A stretch of 64,000 bases of DNA from Candidatus Zambryskiibacteriota bacterium (GTDB lineage Bacteria > Patescibacteriota > Minisyncoccia > Phycocordibacterales > WO2-35-19): the NCBI GenBank assembly GCA_048499675.1, contig JASNZL010000006.1, forward strand, positions 2,089-66,088. Reading direction: 5' to 3'. The notes beneath the pieces were generated by a model. That model saw nothing but the letters and a program-made list of their open reading frames with translations. It ran no database searches and had not been told where the DNA came from. Shown here piece by piece: positions 3,602-62,798 of the stretch; the stretch's first letter is position 1, and the number at the start of each line of letters is the position of its first letter. Both the position numbers and the translations under genes were made by a program.

Positions 3602-4625
3602 ATGAAAAGAAAAAGAGTTTGGGAACTCGGGGAAATACTTCAAAAAATCGCTTCAAAAATAGAAGCGAAGGTTTTGCTTGAACCCAACTGGAAAACAGTT
3701 GGAAGAATTGTTTTCAAAAACGGCAAACATTCATATTTTAGATACAACACACTTGATATAAATCCGATGGGAGCATCTGAAATTGCAAAAGACAAAGATT
3801 ATGCCAACTTTTTCATACGAAAATTAGGTTATAAAACAGTTCCTAAAAAAGCAAGACTTTCTTCTCAAAAGATTGGTGTGTAGAGCAGTAAAGTTCCTGA
3901 TAGAGATAGACCAAGCTTTTTGTATGCAAAAAAAAATTGGCTTTCCTGTTGTAGTAAAACCAAATAGTGGAAGCCAAGGCAAGGATGTTGCTTTTGTTCA
4001 AAACAAAAAAGAGTTTTATAGAGCGCTGAATAAAATATTCCAGCGGGACAGAATTGCCATAGTTCAAAAACCTGTCTATGGCAAGGATTATAGGTTGGTT
4101 GTTTTGGACAACAGAGTCATTTCAGCTTACGAAAGAATTCCCCTATCGATTACAGGCGATGGGAAATCAAATATTTTAGAATTACTAGAGAAAAAAATAA
4201 AAAAGTTTAAGAAAGAAAAAAGAGACGTGAGAATCAAAATTAAAGATGAAAGAATCATAAACAAACTTAAACATCAAAATTTAAATCTACATTCTATTTT
4301 AAATAAAAATAAGAATATTTTCTTGCTCGATAACGCCAATCTCTCTTCTGGTGGTGATTCTATAGACGTAACAAACGTTGTAAGTAAAGAATTTAAAAAC
4401 ATTGCAGTCAGCCTCTCAAAAAAAATGGGTTTAAAACTTTGTGGCGTTGATTTAATTGTAGAAGGAAATATAAGCGACAAACCAAATAAATACTGGATTT
4501 TAGAAATAAATTCTGCTCCAGGTTTAGACAACTATGCGAAATCTGGAAGCAAACAAAAAGAAATTGTAGAAAATTTATATTTGGAGGTTTTGAAAAAGAT
4601 TGGAAAGAATAAAGTTGACTTTTAA
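3602..4625 (+). pseudogene. ATP-grasp ligase (RimK/cyanophycin-synthetase-like), split by a frameshift near 3873-3883
   Basis: Two overlapping ORFs (3602-3883 in frame 2, 3873-4625 in frame 3) together form one ATP-grasp protein: GFPVVVKPNSGSQGKDV, YRLVVLD, ILEINSAPGL. This is either a true frameshift or a sequencing indel. Confidence 0.55.
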
Positions 4626-4688
4626 TAACAAAAATGCTATAATATAGGTAGTGGTGATCTTTGACATGATTTAGAAAGGAGGTAGAAA

Positions 4689-6077
4689 ATGAGGTGGTAT
4701 ATACCCCTCTTCGTCCTTATCATCACGGCGTTCGCGCCGTGGGTGATGGAAATCAACAGGGTTGCAGGCGAACGTGATCGCCTGCAAGAGCAAATCGCCC
4801 CGCTCTACACACCGGATATGATCCGCTCGGAGTTTGAGTGGATTAAGAAGGTGGAGCGACAGTGGAGCGGTCACTCCAATGAAATTAGTTTGCCTGACGA
4901 TCCCTCTGCCTATTGGCAGTATCTGGATCGCAATTACAAGCTAGCGGATGCACTGGAACAGATTATTCGGGACAGGAAGGATTTGCGGTTTTGCGGTGAG
5001 GCTGAGTCTCGTCTCAAATCACTTCGGACCCTTTCCCCGATTAATCTCATCAACAACAACTTCACCATGAAGTTCGGCGCAGAAAAAATGATCTCTAGTA
5101 AGCCTACCGTTGCCTACTTCATTGAAAAGGAGAGGGTGGGTCGGCAGGAGATCAAAAATGACGCCATGGCCAAGTTCAGACGAGGATACCTTATAAGTAT
5201 CCCGCTGATGTTCTTGGTATTCGCCTTGATACTCTCTAACCTCGGTTTGATGATTTGGGTAGAAATACCCCGCATCATCATCGCGGCTTTGTTTTGGCCC
5301 GTTGCCTTGTTCGTCTATCCGCGCGATGTGCGGAGAAGCGAACAAGTCAAAAGAGCGATGCAATTTGTCGCTCAATTGGCCTCGGTCGCTGTCGGATTCT
5401 TCGGTGGTGGCATGACCAATATGGTGAAGGCGCAGGTCTCACCGAACGGCAAGAGCCAGACCCAATCTGGCAAAAAGGGCAACTCGACTTTTGGCTACGG
5501 CCTTGAGTTGTATCCCCAATCTTCCGGCATCGACGCCGGACTCTTGGTGAGCCCTTGGTACGCGCATTCGCATGCTCTACCAAATGGTTTCACCCTCTCC
5601 GGTTTCGGATTTGTGGAAGCTGGTGAACGCAAAAGCCAGTTATTCACGAACCACTCAATGAACTTGTCCCACGCGAAAGCCTTTGGAGCAATGTTCACAG
5701 TCGAGACCGGCGGGACAAGCGCGGGGAGTTTTGTTCAGGTAGGTCCTCGGGTTAACTTGGTCAAGATTCCGGGCTTCCCACAACAGGCAACCAAGATTGT
5801 GAAGTCGGTGGTTGCTGGCTCGTTCTGGCGAATCCGAGGCCCGACGCATTATCAGGAATGGTACCTGTCATGGGTCTCGGAGGAGGCGAAGCTCCCCGGT
5901 GGCTGGAAACTTTCCAGCGAAGGGATGATGCGCTTCCGGCCTGGACCTAGGGCGACGATAGGCCAGCCTCAGCTCATCCTTCGACATCCGAGAATTCGGC
6001 ATGTCATGCTCATGACGGAATTCTGGATCATCGGCACCCAGCCGACTATCCGTTTCGGCGTTCAGTTCGCAAATTAA
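4689..6077 (+). CDS. Hypothetical membrane protein encoded in a GC-rich (about 55%) foreign segment
   Basis: Strong RBS aaggaggtagaaaATG. There is an N-terminal TM helix and a central double TM. GC3 is very high, unlike the 33%-GC flanks. A hairpin terminator follows. Confidence 0.6.
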   Translation: MRWYIPLFVLIITAFAPWVMEINRVAGERDRLQEQIAPLYTPDMIRSEFEWIKKVERQWSGHSNEISLPDDPSAYWQYLDRNYKLADALEQIIRDRKDLRFCGEAESRLKSLRTLSPINLINNNFTMKFGAEKMISSKPTVAYFIEKERVGRQEIKNDAMAKFRRGYLISIPLMFLVFALILSNLGLMIWVEIPRIIIAALFWPVALFVYPRDVRRSEQVKRAMQFVAQLASVAVGFFGGGMTNMVKAQVSPNGKSQTQSGKKGNSTFGYGLELYPQSSGIDAGLLVSPWYAHSHALPNGFTLSGFGFVEAGERKSQLFTNHSMNLSHAKAFGAMFTVETGGTSAGSFVQVGPRVNLVKIPGFPQQATKIVKSVVAGSFWRIRGPTHYQEWYLSWVSEEAKLPGGWKLSSEGMMRFRPGPRATIGQPQLILRHPRIRHVMLMTEFWIIGTQPTIRFGVQFAN

Positions 6078-6591: not shown

Positions 6592-6593
6592 AA

Positions 6594-6620
6594 AAACACT
6601 TTTATAAGTGTTTTTTTATT
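6594..6620 (+). terminator. Rho-independent terminator
   Basis: aaacacttttataagtgttt followed by a T-run. Confidence 0.6.
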
Positions 6621-6811
6621 TAAGTTTTATTTAAGATATTATCCTTTTACTTCAACCCACGCATAATTTTCTGCTGAAAATTTGCGCAATTCTTACAGAA
6701 TCTGTCCACTCATTGGATTTTTCTTCAAATAATCTCAATGAGTCTTGCGAAGCTCCAAGTATTCGCTTCTCACCCACCTCAGCTCGTCAGCTTCCGGTCG
6801 GTCGATGTTTC

Positions 6812-7231
6812 TTATTTCACATCGACCCCCATGCTTCTACATTGCCCTGCGATAATTTTGACGGCTGCCTCCAAATCATTTGCATTTAAGTCAACCATTT
6901 TGACTTGGGCTATTTCTTCAAGTTGTTTTCTTGTTATCGTACCCACCTTTTGAGATGGAGTCTTACCTGCCCCCTTTTCAATTCCTAGAGCTTTTTTTAT
7001 CAAGCTCGATGCTGGAGGAGTTTTGAGGACAAAATCAAAAGTACGGTCTTCGTATACATTTATTTCAGCCGGAACAAGTCCTTCCATGCCTTTTGTAGCA
7101 TCGTTAAATTTTGTAACGAATTCACCAATGTTAATACCCGCAGGACCAAGTGCGGTACCTACAGGAGGAGCGGGAGTTGCTTTGCCCGCCGCAATCACCA
7201 ACTTTATTTTTTTTGTTATTTTTTTTGCCAT
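6812..7231 (-). CDS. rplK: 50S ribosomal protein L11
   Basis: [35 protein letters not shown]... is canonical L11. Confidence 0.92.
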
Positions 7232-7244
7232 TACATGACACTAA

Positions 7245-7646
7245 TTACGAATTGGCACGAATGACACGAATGGGTTTTAGGTACTTATTCCTGAAATTTA
7301 CAATCAACCCTAGCTTAAAACCACTCGCATTTAGATACCTATTCATCTGATAATAATCGTCTTTTGTAACCAAATCCTTGGCCTTAAGATCAATTAGAAG
7401 CTGTTTATTTATAACAAAGTCTACTCTATTTGTAAACTGGTTATCTACTTTGTCTACAGGCAACTCTTTCTCTCTCTCATAAGTGATCATTCTATCTTTT
7501 AAGTAATTTTCCAACATATCACCATATTGTTTCTCTCTACCGTACCTTCCCAATTTATTATGAACTTCAAATAGTATTCCTGTGATTAAATAAGATAATT
7601 CTTTGTACACAATTTTTCCTTTTTCATTTGTGTCATTCGCGTTCAT
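7245..7646 (-). CDS. GxxExxY-family protein (PD-(D/E)XK-like), inserted between nusG and rplK
   Basis: YLITGILFEVHNKLGRYGREKQY fits the GxxExxY family signature. The gene is flanked by inverted CGAATG-heptad repeats at about 7249-7275 and 7625-7662. Confidence 0.55.
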   Translation of the reverse strand: MNANDTNEKGKIVYKELSYLITGILFEVHNKLGRYGREKQYGDMLENYLKDRMITYEREKELPVDKVDNQFTNRVDFVINKQLLIDLKAKDLVTKDDYYQMNRYLNASGFKLGLIVNFRNKYLKPIRVIRANS

Positions 7647-7664
7647 TCGTGTATTGGTGTCGAG

Positions 7665-8210
7665 TTAGATTTTCTTCACCTGCAGGAAGTCTAGCTCTAC
7701 TGGAGTTTCGCGTCCAAACATCGGCACCAACACTTTTACTTTACCCCTTGCTTCATCCACTTCACCAACCTTACCTTCCAAATCCTTGAACGGACCGTCT
7801 GCAATCTTCACCGCATCATCAATTGAAAGGTCTATATTGTGTTTAACGGTCTCTGAACTCATCCTTCTAAACAACTCATCAACCTCTTTTTGCTCTAACG
7901 GCACAGGGAAAACTCCAGAACCAACGAATCCCGTAACTCTTGGAGTATTTCTAACCACATACCAAGATTCATCGGTCACAATCATATCTACCAAAATGTA
8001 TCCGGGGTATATCTTCTCCTCTTCTTCTACTCTCTTGTTTCCTTTTATTTTAATTTTCTTTTCGGTAGGAACTACAACGTCAAATATTTTGTCTTCCATA
8101 CCCAAAGACTCTATTCTTTGTTTTAGATTTCTCATAACCGCATTTTCGTAACCGGAATATGTGTGAACTGCATACCAGTTCCTTCCCTCTTGTATTTGTT
8201 GTTTAGACAT
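7665..8210 (-). CDS. nusG: Transcription termination/antitermination factor NusG
   Basis: NGN domain (WYAVHTYSGYENAV...) and a C-terminal KOW (GKVGEVDEARGKVKVLV). Confidence 0.9.
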   Translation of the reverse strand: MSKQQIQEGRNWYAVHTYSGYENAVMRNLKQRIESLGMEDKIFDVVVPTEKKIKIKGNKRVEEEEKIYPGYILVDMIVTDESWYVVRNTPRVTGFVGSGVFPVPLEQKEVDELFRRMSSETVKHNIDLSIDDAVKIADGPFKDLEGKVGEVDEARGKVKVLVPMFGRETPVELDFLQVKKI

Positions 8211-8273
8211 GTTTCAAATTAAAAATTAAAAATTAAAAAATCAAAAATAAAAATTACAATTCAAAATGTAAAA

Positions 8274-8451
8274 ATTAGACGAAGAGGGCGAGAATTCTTG
8301 AGAAAATATAGTCAAAAAGACCCAAATAAAGTGCGACCAAAATAGAGATGACAATCACCACTGAAGAAAATATTGTTGTCTGTCTTTTGGTAGGCCAATT
8401 GACATGCACAAGCTCGCCTTTTGTTTCTTTTATGTAATTTATTATGGACAT
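8274..8451 (-). CDS. secE: Preprotein translocase subunit SecE (59 aa, below the ORF-track cutoff)
   Basis: My own translation is MSIINYIKETKGELVHVNWPTKRQTTIFSSVVIVISILVALYLGLFDYIFSRILALFV. It has the SecE signature and a single TM, and sits upstream of nusG as in the conserved secE-nusG-rplK order. Confidence 0.6.
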
Positions 8452-8636
8452 AGATGTAAATTAAAAATTAAAAAATCAAAATTTAAAATTATAAGTTTAT
8501 AAAGTTACCCACCAATCCGCAAATGCATGCGAATTATAGCGAATAAGGACATTGTATAACAAAACCTATTAAAAAACCCCTTGCGGGGCCGTTTTATTAA
8601 GTTACACATTAATTATATACCCGTTCAAAAATAAAG

Positions 8637-9680
8637 TCAAGTTCCTGTATCCGTCCAGCACTTTTGAGACTCTGGGACTGTTAATTTGGAACAAATATAC
8701 TGCAAAGGAGAGAGCATGTGAAGAGCATAGTGGGGACGACGAGTGTTGTACCAAATGAGCCAGTCAATTAGTTTCTTGTTAAATTCAGGTACATTATCTC
8801 GAAGAAGTGATCTGTGATAAACAAGGAACTCTTCATTTAGACTACGATTAAATCTCTCCACATGAGCGTTTTCTTTAGGTGATCTTGGATGAGTATTGAA
8901 GTGTAGACCTGTTTCTTCCACTGCTTGGTGGAAGTGGAGAGCAAACTCTGATCCATTGTCAGTCTGGACATCTTTGGGACACAAAGGTAGAACCTGACGA
9001 GTTTTGGAGAGAAAATCGGCAGCACTTCTTGATCCATGATTAGTATAGGCTGTAGCAAAAGCAGTACGTTTTTCGATATCTATGCCAGTCAAAATGTATC
9101 GCTTCACTCCATCCACAAATCGTACAACAGTATCAACTTCCAACACTCTATATCCTTTGGGTCTCCTGAGCTTCTTTCTAGGCTTGTATACTCGCTCAAT
9201 TAGCTTTCCAGTCTTTCCTGAGACGGAGAGTTTTGTGTTTTTTGGTAACTTACCTTGAAACTTTAAGTCATTAATCATTCGACCAACAGTTGAGGGTGAA
9301 AGGTCTGCCACCTTCTCATTTTTCATCATGACAGAAAGTTTGTCCTTCGAGAGACGAGGAGTTTGTCCTCTTTCTTTCAAAATGAAAGCTTCCACCGCTT
9401 CCGGTACGGTTCTTTTTCTTCTGTGTATTGGAGCTGTACTTTTCTTGTTCAGATTCTCTAATTTTCCTAGGTTAGCTTTTAATTTTTTCTGCCATCGGAA
9501 AAGAGTTGGTCTAGAAACCTTGAAAGCTTCCTTTGTAGCTTCCATACTATACTTCTTCCAGAAAGAGAGTATTTTAGCTCTTTCTTTTGCTTGTTCGGTA
9601 ATCATATACCGAAATCGTATCACTCTTTCCCAAGTACTTTTAAATCCTCTGGTTCCCCTAAATTTGTTGAAAAATGCCAT
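8637..9680 (-). CDS. DDE (rve integrase-core) transposase, IS481-family-like
   Basis: N-terminal HTH, rve core with DNGSEF, and HVERFNRSL...RPH in the C-terminus. The ORF is 347 aa. Confidence 0.75.
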   Translation of the reverse strand: MAFFNKFRGTRGFKSTWERVIRFRYMITEQAKERAKILSFWKKYSMEATKEAFKVSRPTLFRWQKKLKANLGKLENLNKKSTAPIHRRKRTVPEAVEAFILKERGQTPRLSKDKLSVMMKNEKVADLSPSTVGRMINDLKFQGKLPKNTKLSVSGKTGKLIERVYKPRKKLRRPKGYRVLEVDTVVRFVDGVKRYILTGIDIEKRTAFATAYTNHGSRSAADFLSKTRQVLPLCPKDVQTDNGSEFALHFHQAVEETGLHFNTHPRSPKENAHVERFNRSLNEEFLVYHRSLLRDNVPEFNKKLIDWLIWYNTRRPHYALHMLSPLQYICSKLTVPESQKCWTDTGT

Positions 9681-9725
9681 ACAAAACTCTTAAACCAGAG
9701 TCTCATATGTTTCTGAACTTATGCA
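8646..9725 (-). mobile_element. IS481-like insertion sequence, intact copy 1
   Basis: A 1080-bp unit is shared with a second copy at 30373-31456. The imperfect terminal inverted repeats are TGTATCCGTCC / GGAACTTATGCA. It contains a single DDE transposase ORF. Confidence 0.7.
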
Positions 9726-9736
9726 CTTATCAAAAT

Positions 9737-16025: not shown

Positions 16026-16139
16026 ATAGATTAAATCTATTATATAAAACAAATCTTTTCAAACCACAAATAAAATCAAAATTTAAAAATCAAAATTAAA
16101 AATTACAATTTAAAATTTAAAATTTTTGGACTTTTTAAC

Positions 16140-16820
16140 TTATTTATTCGTATCGTTCGCACCCATTTGTGTATTAGTGTCGTTTTGCTTCTCATAATCC
16201 TTATACAAAAGTGAAAGTCCTCCGAGAGCCAATACAAAAGTTATAAGCGGAAGAATAAAAAAGTACTTCAAAGACAAGTCAACAAGTTTTGAACCCAGAT
16301 AAACATAGAGAAGGTTTAGAGGAATAAAGAATAATGAGTTAAGCACGACAAATGTAAAAAAATTCATTTTACTGAGTCCTGCCGAATATGCCACCAGCTC
16401 CGGAATTGTCATAAAACCAATTCGAGCTTTTATAAATGACTTTGTGTCATTCAAAACAGAAAGTGCCTTTTCTATTTTTTCAAAATACTTTTCTCCAGCA
16501 AGTTTTCTCACAATTTTCGCTCCATATTTCCTCGCCAAAACAAAACAAGTAATTGAACCTAAAATATCTCCTATCATTACTATTATAAAAGCTTTTGTAC
16601 TTCCATAGAGAGCGCCCGCTACCAAATAAAGTGGTGAACCGCCAAGAGGAGCAATAATAAGCGTGGACATCTTCAGAAGAATTATGACGAGCGGAGCAAG
16701 GATTCCAAAACTTTCTACTTTTTCTTGCAATTGTCCACCACGCACCAAAACCATAGCAAAAACAAAAATTGCAACTATAAAAACAAACCACCCTATTTCA
16801 ACTATTTTCTCTCTTTTCAT
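16140..16820 (-). CDS. DedA/VTT-domain (TVP38/TMEM64) family membrane protein
   Basis: Multi-pass membrane protein with a VTT-like core. The last 8 codons (MGANDTNK) are encoded by a CGAATG-type intergenic repeat. Confidence 0.55.
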   Translation of the reverse strand: MKREKIVEIGWFVFIVAIFVFAMVLVRGGQLQEKVESFGILAPLVIILLKMSTLIIAPLGGSPLYLVAGALYGSTKAFIIVMIGDILGSITCFVLARKYGAKIVRKLAGEKYFEKIEKALSVLNDTKSFIKARIGFMTIPELVAYSAGLSKMNFFTFVVLNSLFFIPLNLLYVYLGSKLVDLSLKYFFILPLITFVLALGGLSLLYKDYEKQNDTNTQMGANDTNK

Positions 16821-17242: not shown

Positions 17243-17459
17243 TTTTTATTTTTATCTTATCTCGTTTAAATTATTTGAATTTGGGATTTTAAATTTTTTT
17301 AGAATTTCGGATTTAGTATTTAGAATTTTATCGTAACTCGCAACTCGCCTCCTTAATCCGTGTCGTGTTTTACTTTCTAAACTTTCTGAACTTTTAAACT
17401 TTCTAACTAATGTATTAGTGTGATTAGTGGGTTACTTTCTAAACTTTTTAACTTTCAAA

Positions 17460-18362: not shown

Positions 18363-18870
18363 ATATAAAATTTAACATAAACACCTCTTTCTATAAACAA
18401 AAAAAATATGATTATATAATGTTATGTTTAAATTATTTAAAAGTAGAAATCTAAATATTGGTTATTTTGCAAAAAATATATCCATAGTTTTGGGGCTTGT
18501 TTTGATGTGGAGAGGTATTTGGTATGTTTTAGATGGAATAGATTATTGGCTTTTTGGAGGCAGTCATATTTATACAGGCATAGCCGGCGTAATAGTCGGG
18601 CTACTTGTTCTCTACATTCCAGACAAAGATTTAAAGGAGATATCGAAATTGTAAGTTCGAAAGTTTGAAAGTTAAAAGGTTGAAAGTTTATAAAGTAATC
18701 CACTAATCACGCTAATACATGCGGATCATAACGAATAAGTATTAGTAAGATTGGCCCGCCTACAACGCTTGAAGTGTAGCGACTGCGGGCAGGTGAATAT
18801 TAGTAATTAGTGGGTAATTTGTTATATTTAATTACTACGAAAATTTTTTAGAAATAGACCAAAAAACACC

Positions 18871-30372: not shown

Positions 30373-31456
30373 TGTATCCGTCCAGCACTTTTGAGACTCT
30401 GGGACTGTTAATTTGGAACAAATATACTGCAAAGGAGAGAGCATGTGAAGAGCATAGTGGGGACGACGAGTGTTGTACCAAATGAGCCAGTCAATTAGTT
30501 TCTTGTTAAATTCAGGTACATTATCTCGAAGAAGTGATCTGTGATAAACAAGGAACTCTTCATTTAGACTACGATTAAATCTCTCCAAATGAGCGTTTCT
30601 TTAGGTGATCTTTGGATGAGTATTGTAGGGGACCTGTTTCTTCCACTGCTTGTGGAAGTGGAGAGCAAAACTCTGATCCATTGTCAGTCTGGACATCTTT
30701 TGGGACACAAAGGTAGAACCTGACGAGTTTTGAGAGAAAATCGGCGCATCTCTGATCCATGATTAGTATAGGCTGTAGCAAAAGCAGTACGTTTTTTCGA
30801 TATCTATGCCAGTCAAAAATGTATCGCTTCACTCCATCCACAAATCGTACAACAGTATCAACTTCCAACACTCTATATCCTTGGGTCTCCTGAGCTTCTT
30901 TTCTAGGCTTGTATACTGCTCAATTAGCTTTCCAGTCTTTCCTGAGACGGGAGGTTTCCCTCGTTTTTTGGAACTTCATTTGAAACTTTAAGTCATTAAT
31001 CATTCGACCAACAGTTGAGGGTGAAAGGTCTGCCACTTTCATTTTTCAACATGACAGAAAGTTTTTCCTTCGAGAGACGAGGAGTTTGTCCTCTTCTTTT
31101 CAAAATGAAAGCTTCCAACGCTTCCGGTACGGTTCTTTTTTTTTCTTCTGTGTATTGGAGCTGTACTTTTCTTTTTGTTCAGATTCTTAATTTTCTCCTA
31201 GGTTAGCTTTTTAATTTTTCTGCCATCGGAAAAAGAGTTGGTCTAGAAACCTTGAAAGCTTCCTTTGTAGCTTCCATACTATATGCCTCTTCCAGAAAGA
31301 GAGTATTTTAGCTCTTTCTTTTGCTTGTTCGGTAATCATATACCGAAATCGTATCACTCTTTCCCAAGTATTTTAAACTCTGGTTCCCCTAAATTTGTTG
31401 AAAAATGCCATACAAAAACTTTAAACCAGAGTCTCATATGTTTCTGAACTTATGCA
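30373..31456 (-). pseudogene. Decayed second copy of the IS481-like element (transposase broken by many homopolymer indels), flanked by a 5-bp GCATT target duplication
   Basis: About 95% identical to 8646-9725 but carrying more than 10 single-base indels. The ORF track shows only fragments (30364-30588, 30575-30871). GCATT occurs on both flanks. Confidence 0.75.
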
Positions 31457-31694
31457 GCATTTCTTGTCGCAAACCTGTTTATACATTGAAAAATAAGGCT
31501 TAATACTAAAACAATACCTTGTCACACACAATCTTCGCACTTTACAGAATAAACAAAACATCGTCCTTCCATATATTTTTTTATAATGCTCATTAACATA
31601 TATTATAACAAAATCCGCCCCAATAAAACGGGTCGAATTTTATCTATGCGCGGTCTAGTGGACGGTGTTGGAACTAAAATACAAAACATTTATT

Positions 31695-39834: not shown

Positions 39835-40177
39835 TGCGGGGTAGAGTAATAGTAACTCGTCAGGCTCAAATATGGTGGGCCCCCTATTGAGAGATTAATA
39901 GGAGCAAATTCGCCAAATTCGGAGAAATCCTCTCCACTAAAAGTGGAAAGACAATTCCGAGCTAAATTCCTTTGAACTTGTCCTGCTTGCCCGACATAGT
40001 TTTAACAACGTTGGGAGCGAAAATCAAAGGATAAATGTGTAGAGACTAGATGGTGAAATTCCAAGTTTAAATTTGGAATATGGTATAGTCCAGACCCCAA
40101 ATCCCAATCATGGGAGCATTGAAAAATGTAGTGGTAAGCATAACCTGAAAATTTTGGTGCGAATCCAAACTCCGCAA
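39835..40177 (+). tRNA. tRNA-Met (CAU) interrupted by a 272-nt group I intron between U33 and C34
   Basis: 5' exon TGCGGGG-TA-GAGTAATAGTAACTC-G-TCAGG-CT. 3' exon CATAA-CCTGA-AAAT-TTTGG-TGCGAAT-CCAAA-CTCCGCA-A. The spliced loop is CTCATAA. The intron starts after U, ends in G, has an internal guide GGCC opposite the exon GGCU, and a P7-like GTAGAGACTAGATGG. Confidence 0.7.
39867..40138 (+). other. Group I intron (272 nt) in tRNA-Met
   Basis: See the tRNA call above. There is no ORF inside. Confidence 0.6.
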
Positions 40178-40794
40178 CACGCAAATTGCACATAAAAATC
40201 CAGTTTAAAACAACTGGATTTTATGTTTGCAATTAAGTAGCCACGTGGTGAGCTTGTCCCGTGAAGCTTTGCTTTTTACGGGACATAGCGAATTTTACGT
40301 GGCCGCGATTTCTTTTCAAACCTCACCTCATTTATTGTAAGAGAAAAATTAAATATCGTTTTTCAAAACTCGATTTTCTCCGTGCAAAAAATCATTCTCT
40401 ATTTTTTAAGAAAGAGATTAAATTTTTTTATAGATACAGAACAAGAAATAAGAAGTGTGTAAAGTTAGATTTTTTCAAACAGTATTTTGAAAACAGCTTT
40501 CTGAAAATTAGCAAAGCGTTCGTTTTCAATAAGAATAGCTGTCTCAGTATCAAAATCTATAAAAATAACCTTGTCGTTTCCAATAAGTTGAGTGATATTA
40601 TACTCAAACGGAATATTCAAGGCTTTTGAGAGACGATTCAAATTGTTATGTCTTTTTTCGTGCGTCTTTCGGTTAGTAATTACATATTTATCAATATCTC
40701 CTTTAGATCCAGCTCTCTTCCAATATAAATCTGGATAATACTTTTTGTTATAGGAATAGTCTTTGGGTGATTCATATCGGTATATTGCACCTTC

Positions 40795-41347: not shown

Positions 41348-42391
41348 ATGAGTTGGCCATCACAAATCGTAATCGTCCGTCATGCAGAATCAGAAGGTAA
41401 TGCTAAAACACCAACTGATTCATCGTTCAGAAACAAAGCAAACCACAGCTTCTCACTTACAGATGAAGGGAGAAAACAGGCAAAAATCACCGGAAATTAT
41501 TTGAAAGAAAAGTACGGTAGATTTGATGTCTACATATGCTCAACCTTCAAACGGACACAAGAAACCCTGTCTGTAATGTATCCCGAGGTGACTCCAGTCA
41601 TAGATTCAAGACTGGATGAAATGTGGCGTGGTATTTGGCACACCATGACCGAGGAAGAAGTTGCAAAATACTATCCCGAAGAAAGAAGAATTTGGGATAG
41701 AGAGGGTTGGTATCATTACAGAGCTCCTGGCGGACAGAATGGGCAAGACGTGGAACTCATCATCTGCTCCTTCCTCTACCACCTTCGCGAGTTTTTCGGA
41801 GGAAAAAGAATTCTCGTTGTAGGACACGGAACGTGGATGATTTTCCTCTGGCGTATCTTGTTTAACCACTCTGTGGCTGAGGCTGAAGCAAAGTATAAAA
41901 GCAACAAGTATAAAAATGCCTCAGTTACCGTACTAGAATCAAAAGATGGTCTTGCTATGGAGCTCTCATTGGAAAACTATGTGCCCCAAGTTGAACCACC
42001 AAAAGCCAATCGTATAAGAAAGTGGTATGAACATGATAGTTGGGTAACACCTGAAGAAGTCCAAAAGGCTACCGATGCCCTACGCAACTTCATGAATACC
42101 AGTGCTTGGTCTCAACTATTAGAGAGTTTGAAAAGAACTCAACAAAAAATCAGAGTCCATGTCTGGGATGACCGATGCGATGACTACGAAGCAATGTACC
42201 TAACCGGAGACGGCTTTGTTAATCATCACGGCTATTTGTACGGGAATCTAACAGAGGTCGTAGAAAACTTCATGACACACGACTTCTATGGAGCCAGAAA
42301 TGAAGGTGGAAATTGGGCTATGAAGCGCCACCCCAACAAACTCATTCCTTGGTTAGAGTTGCAATATAAATATGCAACACTCCAAGGTTAA
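41348..42391 (+). CDS. Histidine phosphatase superfamily (phosphoglycerate-mutase-like) with a roughly 150-aa C-terminal extension
   Basis: Catalytic RHG motif IVIVRHAESEGN and a downstream HGTWMIF. Confidence 0.65.
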   Translation: MSWPSQIVIVRHAESEGNAKTPTDSSFRNKANHSFSLTDEGRKQAKITGNYLKEKYGRFDVYICSTFKRTQETLSVMYPEVTPVIDSRLDEMWRGIWHTMTEEEVAKYYPEERRIWDREGWYHYRAPGGQNGQDVELIICSFLYHLREFFGGKRILVVGHGTWMIFLWRILFNHSVAEAEAKYKSNKYKNASVTVLESKDGLAMELSLENYVPQVEPPKANRIRKWYEHDSWVTPEEVQKATDALRNFMNTSAWSQLLESLKRTQQKIRVHVWDDRCDDYEAMYLTGDGFVNHHGYLYGNLTEVVENFMTHDFYGARNEGGNWAMKRHPNKLIPWLELQYKYATLQG

Positions 42392-42647
42392 ATTTCTCCC
42401 TAAACCTAAGCTCACCTACTCTTCCCTTACACAACAAGGCTTCGCTAAAAAACAGCCAGCATATCCCGCAACTAAAAACGTTGCGGGGTTCTTTTTTACA
42501 TTTGCATTTTTTATAGATGACTCTTGTCTCCCACTTCTTACTTACTTTCTTTATTATTTAAATTCTATATTCTAAATCCTACATTCTATATCCTCTCAAC
42601 TCAATATCGTACTTCGTAATTCGTACTTCGTATCTCGTATTTTGGCA

Positions 42648-43370
42648 CTATATCAAATGGAATTCTTTGAATACTTTTTCGTAGAGTGAAATTATTCGGC
42701 GGGTTTCTCTTTGGTTGAGTAGAAAGTCGCTTCCTTCGTGCGCAATCATATTGCGAGCTTTGTGCGCTTCCCATGCTTCGTCTAGAGTAACAAAATCACT
42801 TTTCTCAACTGCTTTTAGTTTATCCCCCATTGTATCTCCCGGCAATTGTAATTTTTCTAGAAGGTCGTCCAATATGATATCAGATTCAATAATTGCAAGA
42901 CGCCAATCAGATTGATTGATGGATTCAGAAAGTTTAACTATTTTTTCCCATTTTGTTTGAATCTGGGTTTTTGTTTCTACTTTGGCACCAGAAACAAAAT
43001 GCAAAGGAACATTATCTGGCGAAACTTTTGCTTTTTGGGCGAGCCATACCGCATCACCCATCCTAGTCAGAATAAAAGTTCCGACAGCAGAAGCTCCAGC
43101 AATACTAAAACCTAACCCTTTGAAAAATAAAGAATTGGATTTAACAAAATCTACTAAATTGGATAATTTAAAACCAAAAAAAGATATTTCACCAGAAGTA
43201 ACTAGACTTAATAGAGCAGGAAGAACACCACCCAATAGAGCAACCAAAATAAGTAGAATAAAGATTATCTCTACAATGTCAAAATCCCATCCTTTTGGTT
43301 TTTCTTTTGGTTTATCTTTTTTAGGATCAGGCATATTTATAAATATGATACCAATATACGAATTATACAA
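42648..43370 (-). CDS. Hypothetical membrane protein with a possible C-terminal HEPN-like Rx4H motif
   Basis: N-terminal K/P-rich tail, two TM helices, and C-terminal AHKARNMIAHEG (R-x4-H). Confidence 0.35.
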   Translation of the reverse strand: MYNSYIGIIFINMPDPKKDKPKEKPKGWDFDIVEIIFILLILVALLGGVLPALLSLVTSGEISFFGFKLSNLVDFVKSNSLFFKGLGFSIAGASAVGTFILTRMGDAVWLAQKAKVSPDNVPLHFVSGAKVETKTQIQTKWEKIVKLSESINQSDWRLAIIESDIILDDLLEKLQLPGDTMGDKLKAVEKSDFVTLDEAWEAHKARNMIAHEGSDFLLNQRETRRIISLYEKVFKEFHLI

Positions 43371-43383
43371 ATGATACTAATGG

Positions 43384-44846
43384 CTACGAATTTTCACCCA
43401 GAAAGGATTTGCCGATATCAAATAAAATATTTTCATTACTGTGTGGTGCCATTAATTGTATACCAAGAGGTAAATCGATTCCATCTATTTTGGAAAATCC
43501 AGAAGGTAATGATACCGCAGGGCAACCAACAATATTTGCACTCACTGTAAAAATATCTGCCAAATACATTTCGAGCGGATCAGAAATTTCCCCTATTTTG
43601 AAAGCGGGTGAAGTGGTAGTTGGAGTCAAAATTGCATCCACCTCTTTGTATGCGTTTTCAAATTCTTGTCTTAGTATTTTCCTTGCGAGCATAGCTTTGC
43701 CATAATACGAATCATAATAACCAGATGACAAAACATAAGTTCCGAGAATAATCCTTCTTCTTATTTCTTTTCCAAAACCAGTACCTCTTGTTTTTTTATA
43801 TACTTCAAGAAGATTTTCTCCATCAAGATAGTCCGTATTTGATTCCATCAAACGTGCTATCTGATGAAACTTCCTGCCGGCATAACAATATAATAAACCG
43901 CAAGCGACTTATCTACATTTGGAAGTTCTATATCTTTTACTTCGTAACCCAAATCTTTTAGTTTTATTACGGATTCTTCAAAATTTTTTAAAACATCCTC
44001 TCTTATTCCTTCCATTTCTAAAAGATGTCTTGGAATTCCTATCTTTCGTAACTCGTTGCTCGTGACTCGTGATTCGATATCAATACTTGTAGAATCCATT
44101 TTGTCTTTACCTTTTATTGAATCAAAAATTATTTCTGCATCAGTTACTGTTTTGGCAAGAGGACCTATTACATCAAGAGAAGAACCCATTGCCATAAGAC
44201 CATAACGAGAAACGCTACCATAAGTTGGTTTTAGTCCTACAAGCCCACAAAAACTTGCTGGTTCCCTAATAGAACCCCCTGTGTCAGAACCGAGTGCACC
44301 AAGTGCCATATCCCCCGCTACAGACGCTGAGGAGCCACCCGACGAGCCACCCGGTACTCTTGTTGGATCAATGGGGTTTTTGGTGGGGCCATATGCCGAA
44401 TTTTCGGTTGAACCACCGCAAGCAAATTCATCCATATTGGTCCTACCAAGGAAAACGACTCCCTCGTCTATAAGTTTTTGGCTCACAGTAGAATTATATG
44501 TTGCGGTATAGTTTTCTAATATTTTCGAAGCGCTACTTGCTTTTCTTCCTTTTATTAAAATATTGTCTTTGATAGCTAGAGGGATTCCTGTTAGATTTTT
44601 TGACTTTCCACTGTCAATAATTTTTTGAGCCTCTTCTGCTTGCTTTAAAACATCATCATATACTTCCAAATACACATTCAAATCTTCATTCTTTTCTTCA
44701 ATATTTTTTAAATAATGTTCTGCAAGCTCAATAGCGCTCAATTTTTTTGAGTCCAGTAAACCTCTTGCTTCTTTAATTGTAATTTTTGAGAAATCCACTT
44801 TTTTAATTAATCTAATTATACTAATTGACCTAATTATTCTAAACAA
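43384..44846 (-). pseudogene. gatA: Glutamyl-tRNA(Gln)/aspartyl-tRNA(Asn) amidotransferase subunit A, disrupted by a single frameshift near 43852-43870
   Basis: The 329-aa N-terminal ORF (amidase signature GGSSGGSSASVA) and the 155-aa C-terminal ORF (FGKEIRRRIILGTYVLSSGYYDSYYGKA) are contiguous GatA in two frames. Confidence 0.7.
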
Positions 44847-47745: not shown

Positions 47746-47870
47746 TTAAATTTCTAATTATACTAATTGACCTAATTATTCCCCGCCTGCCTAAGATTTG
47801 CAAGGCGTGATGCGCAGGTAAAAACCCCAATTGTGTTAATTAGAAATTAAAATAATTAGGTTAATTATAA

Positions 47871-51679: not shown

Positions 51680-52230
51680 ATTTTTTAATGAATTAACTAA
51701 TGCTCTCTCGAGAGAGAAGCTTGGACAATCGACCTATCTTTTGTGTCCATCAAGCTTGATTACATTATATATAATAGTAAAATTTTTGTTTTTATAGTTG
51801 TGTGGATAACCCCTAAAGGGGAACGAGATACGAAATACGAGTTACGAGTTATTAAAAGGATTAATTAGAAATTTCATTTTTCATTTTGTTCACTACGTTT
51901 GAAAATAAATTACAAAGCACAAATTCCAAATTTTACTAGCTATTTTAGTAAGTTTTATAATTTTGTGTTTTGTTTGTAATTTGTTTCGGATTTAGGATTT
52001 AGGATTTATCATATCTCGTACCTCGTACTTCTTAACTCGTTTTACTAATTCGTGTCATTCGTGCCCATTGGCCCGCCTGCAACGCTTATGCGATAGCATT
52101 TGCGGGTAGATGTATTGGTGTCATGTTAAATTTTGAATTGTAATTTTAAATTTTGAATTTTTAATTAATCCAAAATGCCTTTTTGGATATTAGAATAATC
52201 AAGTCAATTAGAATAATTCTTCTTTTGTGC

Positions 52231-62357: not shown

Positions 62358-62453
62358 GATATTTAAATTAACCTAATTATTCTAATTGATCTAATTGGAA
62401 ATTGTGCATTATAAATTTTTTAGAATAATTAGTGTAATTAGCATAATTAGAAA

Positions 62454-62702: not shown

Positions 62703-62798
62703 TAAATTTTCAATGTTTTAATGTTTAAAATTTGAAAATTGATAATTTTATTATTTCTTATTCGTGTCATTCGTGTGCATTCGTATATTTGTATCTTA

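Follow-up and report, generated by a model that had tools for sequence, protein, structure and literature searches.

The GxxExxY gene at the nusG-rplK junction

On the minus strand of the window (the whole stretch of DNA analysed, 64 kb), the ORF listing and the profile matches give the order secE, nusG, a 133-aa GxxExxY ORF and rplK (Table 1), in agreement with a preliminary description in which such an ORF splits nusG from rplK. The ORF matched TIGR04256 with 80.8 bits (cut-off 35) over profile positions 1-114 of 116, and PF13366 (PDDEXK_3) with 85.1 bits (cut-off 22). It is the only copy of a GxxExxY gene in the window and, together with the repeat arms at its ends, forms a cassette of ~430 bp (7236-7662), sense-oriented and placed between the nusG stop and the rplK start, with 13 nt from the cassette stop codon to the rplK ATG. 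When the whole window was searched with Rfam 15, the arms, the cassette and the GC-rich cores described below had no match at the gathering score. Three tRNAs and one group I intron were the only Rfam matches in the window.

Table 1 Features of the nusG-rplK locus and further arm sites in the window
Feature	Position	Strand	Remarks
secE	8451..8275	minus	TIGR00964
nusG, host gene upstream of cassette	7665..8210	minus	TIGR00922, 196 bits
Cassette 5' arm	7623..7662	minus	CGACACCAAT ACACGAAT GAACGCGAAT GACACAAAT GAA
GxxExxY / PDDEXK_3 ORF, 133 aa	7245..7646	minus	TIGR04256, PF13366
Cassette 3' arm	7236..7274	minus	CCCATTCGTGTC ATTCGTGCC AATTCGTA ATTAGTGTCA
rplK (L11), host gene downstream of cassette	6812..7231	minus	TIGR01632, 177 bits
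Solo arm copy	8508..8547	plus	between integrase-family (rve) gene and secE
Solo arm, 5'-arm type	16143..16182	minus	in frame as C-terminal DTNTQMGANDTNK plus stop of VTT/DedA protein
ORF-less doublet, 5' + 3' arm	18700..18814	plus	ends CCACTAAT / ATTAGTGG
Solo arm copy, five units	43347..43391	plus	3' end of amidase-family ORF
Solo arm, 5'-arm type	52045..52122	minus	interrupted by 38-nt GC-rich palindromic core 52072-52109, adjoining ATTGG
Solo arm, 5'-arm type	62757..62795	minus	directly past rplN (L14) stop, rplN|rplX junction

A repeat search recovered the inverted copies that had been reported on both sides of the gene as arms of 26 nt with 81% complementarity (7247-7272 / 7625-7650), and the inverted repeat grows to ~38 nt when one indel is allowed (7236-7274 / 7623-7662). 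Each arm is built from four units of ~9 nt with a CGAAT core in each, and the inversion between the arms is imperfect. The units had been called heptads, but their measured lengths are 7-10 nt (mean ~9). The 5' arm begins 2 nt past the nusG stop and includes the ATG and codons 1-8 of the ORF, so that the repeat does encode the first residues (MNANDTNE), as had been noticed. Beyond that observation, the end of the ORF (IRVIRANS and stop) also falls within an arm: the 3' arm codes for the C-terminal PIRVIRANS plus stop, and its final nucleotide lies 4 nt before the rplK ATG. The four-unit 5' arm recurs in >25 non-redundant loci, and a C-terminal ...KPIRVIR[AS][NH]S is present in nearly all of the 120 homologues listed.

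In the protein, E38, E59, D76, (D/E)86-x-K88 and Q100 vary little or not at all among 33 sequences. These are the positions expected for the catalytic residues of the predicted PD-(D/E)XK nuclease; the window protein reads D86-x-K88 at the predicted catalytic pair. The AF2 model (pLDDT 85.5) has the topology alpha-alpha-beta-beta-beta-alpha-beta-beta, and Foldseek returned weak matches (E about 1e-3) to Cas4, lambda exonuclease, EndA and restriction enzymes. A PDB sequence search with the protein gave no match, and PADLOC and PHROGs gave no useful one. With dN/dS values of 0.06-0.12 among orthologues and the conserved PD-(D/E)XK positions, the protein looks functional and is under purifying selection. 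The family is large (4124 cluster representatives at E <= 1e-3 among 1.84 billion), and its function was given as unknown in a 2012 survey (PMC3424549). Our literature search under the family names found no paper on GxxExxY function, and no description of a nuclease activity, DNA binding or a cleavage site.

Occupancy of the junction and history of the cassette

We compared the junction in 80 relatives fetched through NusG (76-92% NusG identity). The GxxExxY gene was absent from the nusG-rplK junction in 80/80 of them, and their nusG-rplK gaps, 3-454 bp long, are free of arms except in one (L054). The cassette is therefore an insertion, which bears out the proposal that the gene entered a normally contiguous gene pair; an ancestral gene, carried at this site by all relatives without repeats, is contradicted by the same 80 empty sites. 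On a NusG + L11 host tree, built on these two short proteins, occupied junctions turn up at 8 or more separate positions. Cassette and host identities correlate weakly (Spearman 0.26), and hosts that are 65-68% identical carry cassettes that are 72-76% identical. At four-fold degenerate sites of the same genome pairs, the cassettes are 50-76% identical, versus 22-44% (saturated) for the flanking nusG/rplK; likewise, the cassette has dS values of 0.7-1.8, and those of nusG are saturated. These values suggest that the cassette coalesces more recently than its flanks, although nucleotide-level constraint across the whole ORF could also conserve the synonymous sites.

The close homologues of the window gene (77-90% identity) are syntenic at nusG|rplK, indicating that the insertion has been inherited in the clade to which the window belongs and is not recent. 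Because these homologues are strictly syntenic and the window holds a single gene copy, recent movement is not directly seen. The cassette is in frame with nusG at 17/24 loci; a link between the two frames was dropped because the loci are not independent and stops are frequent. Other inserts also occupy this junction. In one lineage (L082) it holds a PF05635 (23S_rRNA_IVP) gene enclosed by inverted CTAAAAA-type arrays, and GIY-YIG genes within inverted repeats are found there as well.

Dispersed arms, derivatives and the cassette family

Besides the one GxxExxY gene, the 64 kb hold at least 7 further arm sites. The recurrences reported near 16140, 52044 and 62761 proved to be arms (16143-16182, 52045-52122 and 62757-62795), and additional sites were found at 8508-8547, 43347-43391 and 18700-18814. 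Under a strict array definition the window has 6 arrays, where shuffles expect 0.09 (maximum 1). Arrays of this kind are not ubiquitous spacers, the condition under which the earlier proposal would have failed: there were 5 in 633 kb of the NusG-fetched relatives, and 224 kb of contigs with a cassette contained 24 extra ones, a ~13-fold higher density in a contrast that spans different lineages and is not phylogenetically independent. Window intergenic regions are also rich in other short-period arrays, of AAATTTT, CTAATT and ACTTTCTAA type. Two 347-aa ORFs (8637-9680 and 41348-42391), considered as insertion-sequence copies that own the nearby arms, show no mutual alignment.

The preliminary description had taken the arms at 52 kb and 18.7 kb to bracket a GC-rich core of about 55 nt, possibly a miniature element. 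The cores are 38-39 nt long (52072-52109; 18755-18793). At 52 kb the core sits inside one arm, and the flanking pieces are direct, not inverted, because the core splits a single arm; at 18.7 kb, in an ORF-less doublet, it is inserted behind the ATTGG of the 3' arm and splits that arm. The idea of miniature elements thus holds insofar as ORF-less derivatives exist, while the core itself is a secondary arm insertion and, at 52 kb, not a bracketed cargo. Across all collected loci, the core was present in the window only.

The window's solo arms at rplN|rplX and after the VTT gene mark junctions that hold intact cassettes in other lineages. An intact GxxExxY gene lies directly upstream of rplX in four loci (L126, L127, L129 and L134; rplN upstream confirmed in L127 and L134), and a VTT gene is followed by an intact GxxExxY gene in another (L091). 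Arms accompany the gene in >50 independent Patescibacteria loci, at junctions of co-directional housekeeping genes (upstream neighbour co-directional in 46/46, downstream in 48/51) or in frame within housekeeping proteins, and the distance from the cassette stop to the next ATG is most often 12-14 nt. Gene and arms make up a unit: 87.8% of cells pair in register between the two arms, versus 20-37% with the partner slid, and the mean arm duplex is about -33 to -36 kcal/mol, against -15 for shuffles. Cognate arm pairs score only slightly above non-cognate ones (30.9 vs 25.8), owing to arm conservation throughout the subfamily. In-frame nested cassettes occur at recurrent sites in RecG (3x), GatB (3x), FolD, DHFR, RseP and RecO, and the host reading frame stays open across both arms in these copies. 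In a further folD gene (L084), arm sequence is read through in frame; the window ORF 1530-2369, tried as its counterpart, is not FolD. A Pfam search of 10 nested proteins found no Hint/intein domain; they show PDDEXK_3 with host domains, or PDDEXK_3 alone in P0152, and the protein-splicing domain that surrounds the endonuclease of an intein is absent from these nested relatives.

Some cassettes are degenerate (L123 is frameshifted; L160 and L162 are fragments). The ORF-less doublets in L087 and L107 match the resident element of the same contig (36/40 for the 3' arm in L107) and look like deletion derivatives of the full element, not an independent replicator. More generally, extra arm copies resemble the arms of their own contig more than foreign arms (p = 5e-4). 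Terminal inverted repeats and short non-autonomous derivatives with the same ends, the features of TIR transposons and MITEs, are thus both present. The proposed check for target-site duplications came out negative: among 29 non-redundant loci, 23 have no flanking direct repeat of >=3 nt and the other six have repeats of 3-4 nt only, and the cassette is therefore not a classical cut-and-paste element. The type of arm unit changes together with the GxxExxY lineage. On plasmids of other phyla (Bacteroidota, Spirochaetota), inverted repeats with other unit sequences flank 3/4 of the GxxExxY genes examined, those of Bacteroides, Bernardetia and Treponema.

Origin of the cassette and its closest counterparts

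Taken together, the sequence comparisons suggest that the window cassette is a member of a large cassette family. The reading that we favour, at a probability of roughly 0.55, is a selfish, operon-nested nuclease cassette spread by a homing-like or REPIN-like process, for which we infer the following mechanism. Lacking an obvious promoter of its own, the cassette would be expressed from the host operon. Its nuclease would act on DNA, either on the arms (as inverted phased binding sites or as a hairpin) or on cassette-free alleles, and repair or recombination would then copy the cassette into homologous junctions of related genomes, homing-style. Internal deletion would give rise to ORF-less doublets and solo arms, which may persist or spread like MITEs/REPINs. 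In the window's own clade the insertion is now vertically inherited. No description of this cassette organisation was found in the literature searched (GxxExxY, PDDEXK_3, CPR repeats and cargo-family combinations).

Free-standing homing endonuclease genes (intronless homing) and intein-type placement offer one counterpart, and I-Ssp6803I is a PD-(D/E)XK homing enzyme. As with these genes, highly conserved genes are the neighbours or the hosts of a small, putative nuclease gene, the same site is occupied patchily with empty alleles in close relatives, the history is discordant with that of the host, the cassette appears younger than its flanks, and degenerate copies occur. To our knowledge, terminal inverted arms and miniature derivatives are not features of homing endonuclease genes, whereas the cassette has both; the nested cassettes also differ from intein placement in carrying no Hint or intein domain by Pfam.

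Cyanobacterial STRR heptanucleotide arrays are tandem short units that are intergenic and often occur as inverted sets, and the cassette arms resemble them in each of these respects. We know of no definition of STRRs as the ends of a gene cassette, and the arms keep a fixed four-unit order, unlike an open-ended tandem array. An analogy with these heptamer arrays underlies a reading that is disfavoured and that we hold to be very improbable, in which a resident host gene was lost in most relatives and the repeats are simple-sequence spacers typical of the lineage and unlinked to the gene. The many other short-period arrays in the window's intergenic regions, the purifying selection and the synteny among close relatives would fit it. 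It is difficult to reconcile with CGAAT arms that track the GxxExxY gene across contexts and lineages, with a unit type that shifts with the gene lineage, with the rarity of arms in relatives whose junction is without the gene, with GxxExxY genes in unrelated junctions and inside ORFs, and with synonymous sites that are saturated in the flanks but not in the gene.

REPINs and RAYTs, that is, REP doublets and REP-associated tyrosine transposases (PMC3116915, PMC3337134, PMC5581495), provide the counterpart for the dispersed arms. In both systems one nuclease-type gene has inverted copies of a short dispersed repeat on both sides, the repeat also occurs extragenically as singlets and as doublets able to form hairpins, the copies in the same genome match the flanks of the resident gene, and target-site duplications are absent. 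Combined with the strict synteny within the window's clade and the contrast between a single gene and 7 or more other arm sites in the window, these REPIN/RAYT features (PMC3116915) would also fit a gene that is itself immobile, single-copy and vertically inherited, with the nuclease dispersing or maintaining the arms as REPIN-like doublets and singlets. We regard this as unlikely. The cassette protein has a PD-(D/E)XK fold of 125-133 aa and is not a Y1/HUH transposase; the Pfam and NCBIfam searches of the inserted ORF returned the PD-(D/E)XK family only. Unlike REPIN/RAYT repeats, each arm consists of four phased ~9-bp units and overlaps the ORF. The gene and its arms are found at many junctions and nested in frame within many host genes, which is not expected of a stationary gene, the synonymous sites of the cassette appear younger than those of its flanks, and the L087 and L107 doublets look like derivatives of a full element.

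The arms might instead act at the RNA level, as a ~35-bp transcript stem that encloses the ORF in the manner of 23S rRNA intervening sequences, with mobility a separate matter. RNase III could then process the transcript, the nuclease ORF could be repressed, or rplK translation could be coupled to nusG termination, and the insertion would be harmless. The mean arm duplex on the sense strand is -33 kcal/mol, against -15 for shuffles, and the minimum-free-energy fold of 7685..7225 pairs both arms. Both the start and stop codons of the ORF, and the initiation region of rplK, lie in or adjoining the stem, and the cassette is always sense-oriented within operons. The 23S rRNA intervening sequence (S23p / PF05635) likewise has a small ORF within inverted repeats in a conserved transcription unit, and in Coxiella it is excised by RNase III (PMC4990558); the PF05635 gene with its inverted CTAAAAA-type arrays at the L082 junction provides a direct tie, and the GIY-YIG genes there are similarly enclosed. 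The mismatches argue against an RNA stem. On the sense strand they are mostly A.C (102, versus 35 of the G.U type), the opposite of what such a stem predicts, and in 32/40 loci stability is higher for the antisense duplex. Pairing between the arms is conserved, but compensatory change in the register that we assigned showed no excess over shuffles (153/500), so that selection on pairing as such is not demonstrated. RNAalifold on the joined arms settled on a slipped register because the arm units repeat. An RNA-level role also leaves the solo arms and the sequence-specific CGAAT units unexplained, and nested copies would not need to hold the host frame open through both arms if the RNA were removed. 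Unlike the rRNA intervening sequences, the cassette lies outside rRNA, between protein-coding genes, with a stem that is predicted, and its cargo is a putative nuclease, not a four-helix bundle protein. We consider this reading quite improbable.

A stronger version, by analogy with archaeal bulge-helix-bulge introns, would make the cassette a bacterial intervening sequence whose arms pair in the transcript, whose own EndA-like nuclease excises the segment and whose ends are rejoined by an RtcB/archease-type ligase. It would explain how copies in folD, gatB, recG and folA are tolerated, and it is consistent with arms that are complementary in every context, with tRNA-splicing endonucleases among the weak structural matches and with one relative fused in frame upstream of a putative archease (read by eye). 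Here too, the open host frame through both arms of nested copies and the mismatch spectrum speak against a spliced sense-strand stem, and conservation falls on the residues of metal-dependent DNA nucleases, making the proposal highly unlikely.

Rickettsia palindromic elements and in-frame MITEs (reviewed in PMC10969869) share with the cassette family the read-through of palindromic or arm sequence in host proteins, seen here in the window's DedA C-terminus, in the L084 folD and, as full cassettes, in FolD, GatB, RecG and DHFR. The cassette differs from them in being an autonomous-looking version with a folded nuclease domain, in arms made of short-unit arrays and in the absence of target-site duplications.

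In the reading of a selfish nuclease cassette, GxxExxY / PDDEXK_3, a large family without known function, may supply the protein of a recognisable element, whose hallmarks are a nuclease ORF, phased inverted arm arrays, miniature derivatives and placement either in the stop-to-start gaps of housekeeping operons or, in frame, within essential proteins. If this is true, the family would have a testable function, in that its proteins would recognise or cleave their own arms or empty sites, and at least some intergenic short-period inverted arrays, here and beside the GxxExxY genes of Bacteroidota plasmids, would have a source. It would also account for repeat-encoded peptides at protein termini, such as TNDTN and IRVIR, and for the origin of domains inserted into essential proteins in the genome-reduced Patescibacteria. 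In annotation, fused or extended ORFs at such sites would then be treated with caution, as products of the cassette.

An inverted-arm cassette between nusG and rplK

The minus strand of the window (35% GC, AT-rich) carries secE, nusG, a GxxExxY ORF of 133 amino acids and rplK in this order, with 18 nt between the nusG stop codon and the ORF and 13 nt between the ORF and the rplK ATG. A repeat search of the window detected inverted arms of 26 nt at 7247-7272 and 7625-7650 (81% complementary), which reach about 38 nt when one indel is allowed. Each arm is made of four units with C-N-AAT at the unit end; the preliminary description had regarded them as strict heptads, a claim that must be dropped because the units measure 7–10 nt. 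The ATG of the ORF lies inside the 5′ arm, which codes for NANDTN, and the stop codon with the preceding IRVIRANS is encoded by the 3′ arm; ACGAATGACACGAAT (TNDTN) is the reverse complement of ATTCGTGTCATTCGT (IRVIR). Under a strict array definition, six arrays were observed in the window versus 0.09 expected from shuffles.

The gene had been described as an insertion between two normally adjacent genes, and the relatives bear this out: nusG|rplK was an empty site in all 80 loci fetched with NusG (MAGs labelled Zambryskibacteria, Taylorbacteria or Paceibacteria; 76–92% NusG identity), none of which has GxxExxY between the two genes, the gap being 3–454 bp. No arms were found at the closest empty sites (L004-L007), and a profile HMM search detected exactly one GxxExxY in the window and none at all in the 633 kb of NusG-fetched loci. 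The nuclease ORF and its inverted four-unit arms constitute a discrete cassette inserted at this junction.

The AF2 model of the protein (pLDDT 85.5) has a compact α/β core, with the arm-encoded residues 1–9 disordered and the IRVIR segment as the last strand. The conserved positions are those expected for a PD-(D/E)XK site (E38, E59, D76, D/E86-x-K88 and Q100), and structural similarity in Foldseek was only weak (E about 1e-3), the proteins hit being Cas4, lambda exonuclease, RecE, tRNA-splicing endonucleases and restriction enzymes. A PDB sequence search, PADLOC and PHROGs added nothing on the protein, and the function of the family is listed as unknown (PMC3424549).

In relatives, nusG|rplK is likewise a hotspot for small ORFs of other kinds that lie within inverted repeats, including a PF05635 23S_rRNA_IVP gene flanked by inverted CTAAAAA-type arrays (locus L082, 926-1380) and GIY-YIG genes within a CCCCG...CGGGG stem (L061 4543-4925, L074 4543-4876). 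This stem occurs with short loops at the L005, L011 and L040 junctions, and L054 has a hairpin of ACGAA units without an ORF (4543-4706). Neither the window (6592-6811) nor its closest relatives (L085, L087, L088) have rplA after rplK; in the window this place is taken by a hairpin resembling a terminator and by a 5-formyltetrahydrofolate cyclo-ligase gene in convergent orientation, and in the relatives by a dCTP deaminase or cytidylyltransferase gene. Another cassette-bearing nusG|rplK locus, L093, has a Y1 transposase gene (PF01797, 3890-4540) directly 3′ of rplK, which may be a coincidence.

Features of the window
Feature	Position	Strand	Remarks
secE	8451..8275	-	above curated cut-off
nusG	8210..7665	-	above curated cut-off
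5′ arm	7662..7623	-	CGACACCAAT ACACGAAT GAACGCGAAT GACACAAAT (coding strand)
GxxExxY ORF	7646..7245	-	TIGR04256 80.8 bits, PF13366 (PDDEXK_3) 85 bits; above curated cut-offs
3′ arm	7274..7236	-	ATTCGTGTC ATTCGTGCC AATTCGTA ATTAGTGTC (coding strand)
rplK	7231..6812	-	above curated cut-off
Solo arm	8508-8547		
Solo arm	16143-16182		in frame, C-terminus of VTT/DedA protein
Solo arm	43347-43391		overlaps 3′ end of 155-aa amidase-type ORF
Solo arm	52045-52122		
Solo arm	62757-62795		directly 3′ of rplN
ORF-less doublet	18700-18814		
GC-rich core	18755-18793; 52072-52109		
Looser relative of core	47781-47828		
Short-period arrays	8211-8274; 8452-8500; 16060-16139; 42610-42647; 47746-47870; 52123-52170; 62358-62453; 62703-62750		
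Paired arrays	17380-17459 with 18660-18700; 51830-51870 with 52005-52045		
Group I intron	39857-40116	+	Rfam, 60.8 bits
tRNA-like gene	39836-40190	+	
155-aa ORF	43384-43851	-	
329-aa ORF	43857-44846	-	

Distribution, nesting and history of the cassette family

Of 639 GxxExxY homologues (E ≤ 1e-5), 120 were listed; the C-terminus is ...KPIRVIR[AS][NH]S in nearly all of these, and the N-terminus is M-x-x-NDTN in many. The same four-unit arms surround the ORF in about 60 metagenome loci and looked-up contigs, where the outer arm ends are (C)TCGACAC and GTGTCG(AG). Pairing in register was seen for 87.8% of cells across 24 diverse joined arms, as against 20–37% when slid, and covariation showed no excess over shuffles, so that the sequence of both arms is what is conserved. 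In more distant homologues (43–56% identity) the units differ (for example CCGAAT, ACGAAC and TTTCGTA) and are likewise inverted at both ends. Outside the Patescibacteria, four plasmid-borne GxxExxY genes were sampled: those of Bacteroides finegoldii and Bernardetia have inverted CACAGAGG/CACAGAGA arrays on both flanks, that of Treponema a flanking ACACGGATTCG inverted repeat, and that of Gemmatirosa a CGCGGAT array on the downstream side only.

Cassettes are regularly placed in sense orientation between or inside housekeeping genes. Neighbours are co-directional upstream in 46/46 assessable cases and downstream in 48/51, the commonest distance from the cassette stop codon to the next ATG is 12–14 nt, just beyond the last arm unit, and no target-site duplications were found at cassette loci. 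The commonest context is nusG|rplK; others are rplN|rplX (L126, L127, L129, L134), the position after a VTT/DedA gene (L091) and consecutive junctions within a PrgI/TraC/TraG cluster (L100).

When 1.84 billion representatives were searched with a profile, 4124 GxxExxY proteins were obtained at E ≤ 1e-3. The best 150 comprise 54 stand-alone proteins, 38 short fragments (<110 aa), 34 proteins with in-frame C-terminal and 4 with in-frame N-terminal extensions, and 20 longer proteins in which the domain is internal (including the doubtful match P0169), proportions that are not frequencies because cluster representatives may over-represent long fusions. Two C-terminal extensions inspected by eye, prepilin-like and archease-like, resemble downstream host proteins. 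Where the internal-domain proteins were Pfam-scanned or read directly, GxxExxY lies in frame within host proteins, namely RecG (three representatives that share a position between motif II and SATPIPR), GatB (three representatives sharing a site, plus one elsewhere by eye), FolD, DHFR, an M50 protease, RecO and a group 1 glycosyltransferase (examples, in the order FolD, RecG, GatB, DHFR, M50 protease, RecO: P0127/L168 1501-2775; P0149, P0145, P0160; P0202, P0213, P0253; P0267; P0138; P0212). The linker peptides are arm-encoded, the CGAAC x4 and GTTCG x4 arms of the nested FolD DNA (P0127) are both open in the host frame, and Pfam detected no Hint domain in the nested proteins.

Close cassette homologues (77–90% identity) show synteny at nusG|rplK where the host NusG is 88–92% identical to that of the window, indicating that the insertion was inherited within the window's clade. 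Occupied junctions fall in at least eight separate places of a NusG+L11 neighbour-joining tree, and cassette identity correlates weakly with host identity (Spearman 0.26), with cassettes 72–76% identical in hosts 65–68% identical. For the same genome pairs, identity at four-fold degenerate sites is 50–76% in the cassette versus 22–44%, the saturation level, in nusG and rplK; dS is 0.7–1.8 in the cassette and saturated in nusG, and dN/dS is 0.06–0.12. Read most simply, the protein is functional and its gene coalesces later than the flanking sequence, which amounts to an exchange among lineages at one and the same site. Nucleotide-level constraint across the whole ORF is an alternative explanation of the synonymous-site contrast.

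Solo arms, doublets and other elements of the window

Recurrence of the repeat elsewhere in the window, as previously proposed, was recovered, the solo arms starting at 16143, 52045 and 62757 being among the copies found. Window junctions with solo arms, single copies without the ORF, at rplN|rplX and VTT hold intact cassettes in other lineages. Extra arrays number 24 in 224 kb of cassette-bearing contigs versus 5 in 633 kb of NusG-fetched loci, and extra copies are closer to the resident arms of their own contig than to foreign arms (median rank fraction 0.06, p = 5e-4). In two distant lineages, doublets of both arms without the ORF lie at secE|nusG (L087 2325-2432, L107 1830-1928), next to an intact cassette at nusG|rplK. 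They retain both arms of the resident element with 12–22 nt between them (36/40 for the L107 doublet 3′ arm against the resident one) and look like internal-deletion derivatives. A solo arm in frame within folD (L084 556-597), CTCGACACTAATACGCGAATGGGTGCGAATGACACGAATG, encodes LDTNTRMGANDTN and is the same arm variant as at the window DedA C-terminus. Miniature derivatives are part of the cassette family, whose history is discordant with that of the flanking sequence.

Both window copies of a GC-rich palindromic core of 38–39 nt (CCCGCCTRCAACGCTT...TGCGGGYAG) are inserted immediately 3′ of ATTGG of an arm unit, and the looser third relative lies between inverted CTAATT-type arrays. Absent from all other loci compared, the core could be a nested mini-insertion or a structured RNA. 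The other short-period arrays, found in many intergenic regions of the window, include AT-rich heptads (AAATTTT/AAAATTA type) located upstream of genes, the inverted CTAATT type, ACTTTCTAA together with its complement, ACGAGWT paired with its complement at a distance of about 170 nt, and TACTTCG/TAATTCG units.

The group I intron appears to interrupt the tRNA-like gene, whose 5′ half begins GCGGGGTAGAG and whose 3′ half ends ...GGTGCGAATCCAAACTCCGCA; ARAGORN made no call there, and trial splicing gave only a tRNA of undetermined type. The similarity of the 155-aa ORF to Pfam Amidase is confined to the C-terminal third (positions 310-443 of 445); the ORF lies 5 nt after the 329-aa ORF on the same strand, and the two may represent a gatA-like amidase gene that has been split or interrupted. 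A aaaccagagtctcatatgtttctgaacttatgca-containing sequence (9681-9736) upstream of an integrase-family (rve) gene (8637-9680) is repeated in the 31207-31694 intergenic region, suggesting a second, partial copy of the rve insertion sequence at 31.2–31.7 kb; a 347-aa ORF (41348-42391), considered as another copy, is unrelated to the rve gene.

Relation to known systems

The GxxExxY protein family and its annotation were already known, and the literature covered, largely outside subscription journals, described neither an organisation bracketed by arms nor miniature derivatives nor nesting within essential genes. The anatomy of REPIN/RAYT systems (PMC3116915) is close to that of the cassette, but the enzyme differs; homing endonuclease genes fit its distribution, but not its arms. 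The arms pair with each other in the RNA minimum-free-energy fold of the cassette region, and at the RNA level they could act like the stem of an intervening sequence (PMC4990558), a role compatible with the other readings. The sense-strand mismatches (102 of A·C versus 35 of G·U type), the strand energies and the reading frames kept open by nested copies do not favour such a role. We rate the cassette as a selfish nuclease element related to homing endonuclease genes, REPIN/RAYT systems and MITEs: the predicted nuclease would act on its own arms or on empty alleles, the cassette would spread via homing-like copying, and its deletion derivatives would behave as MITEs or REPINs do.
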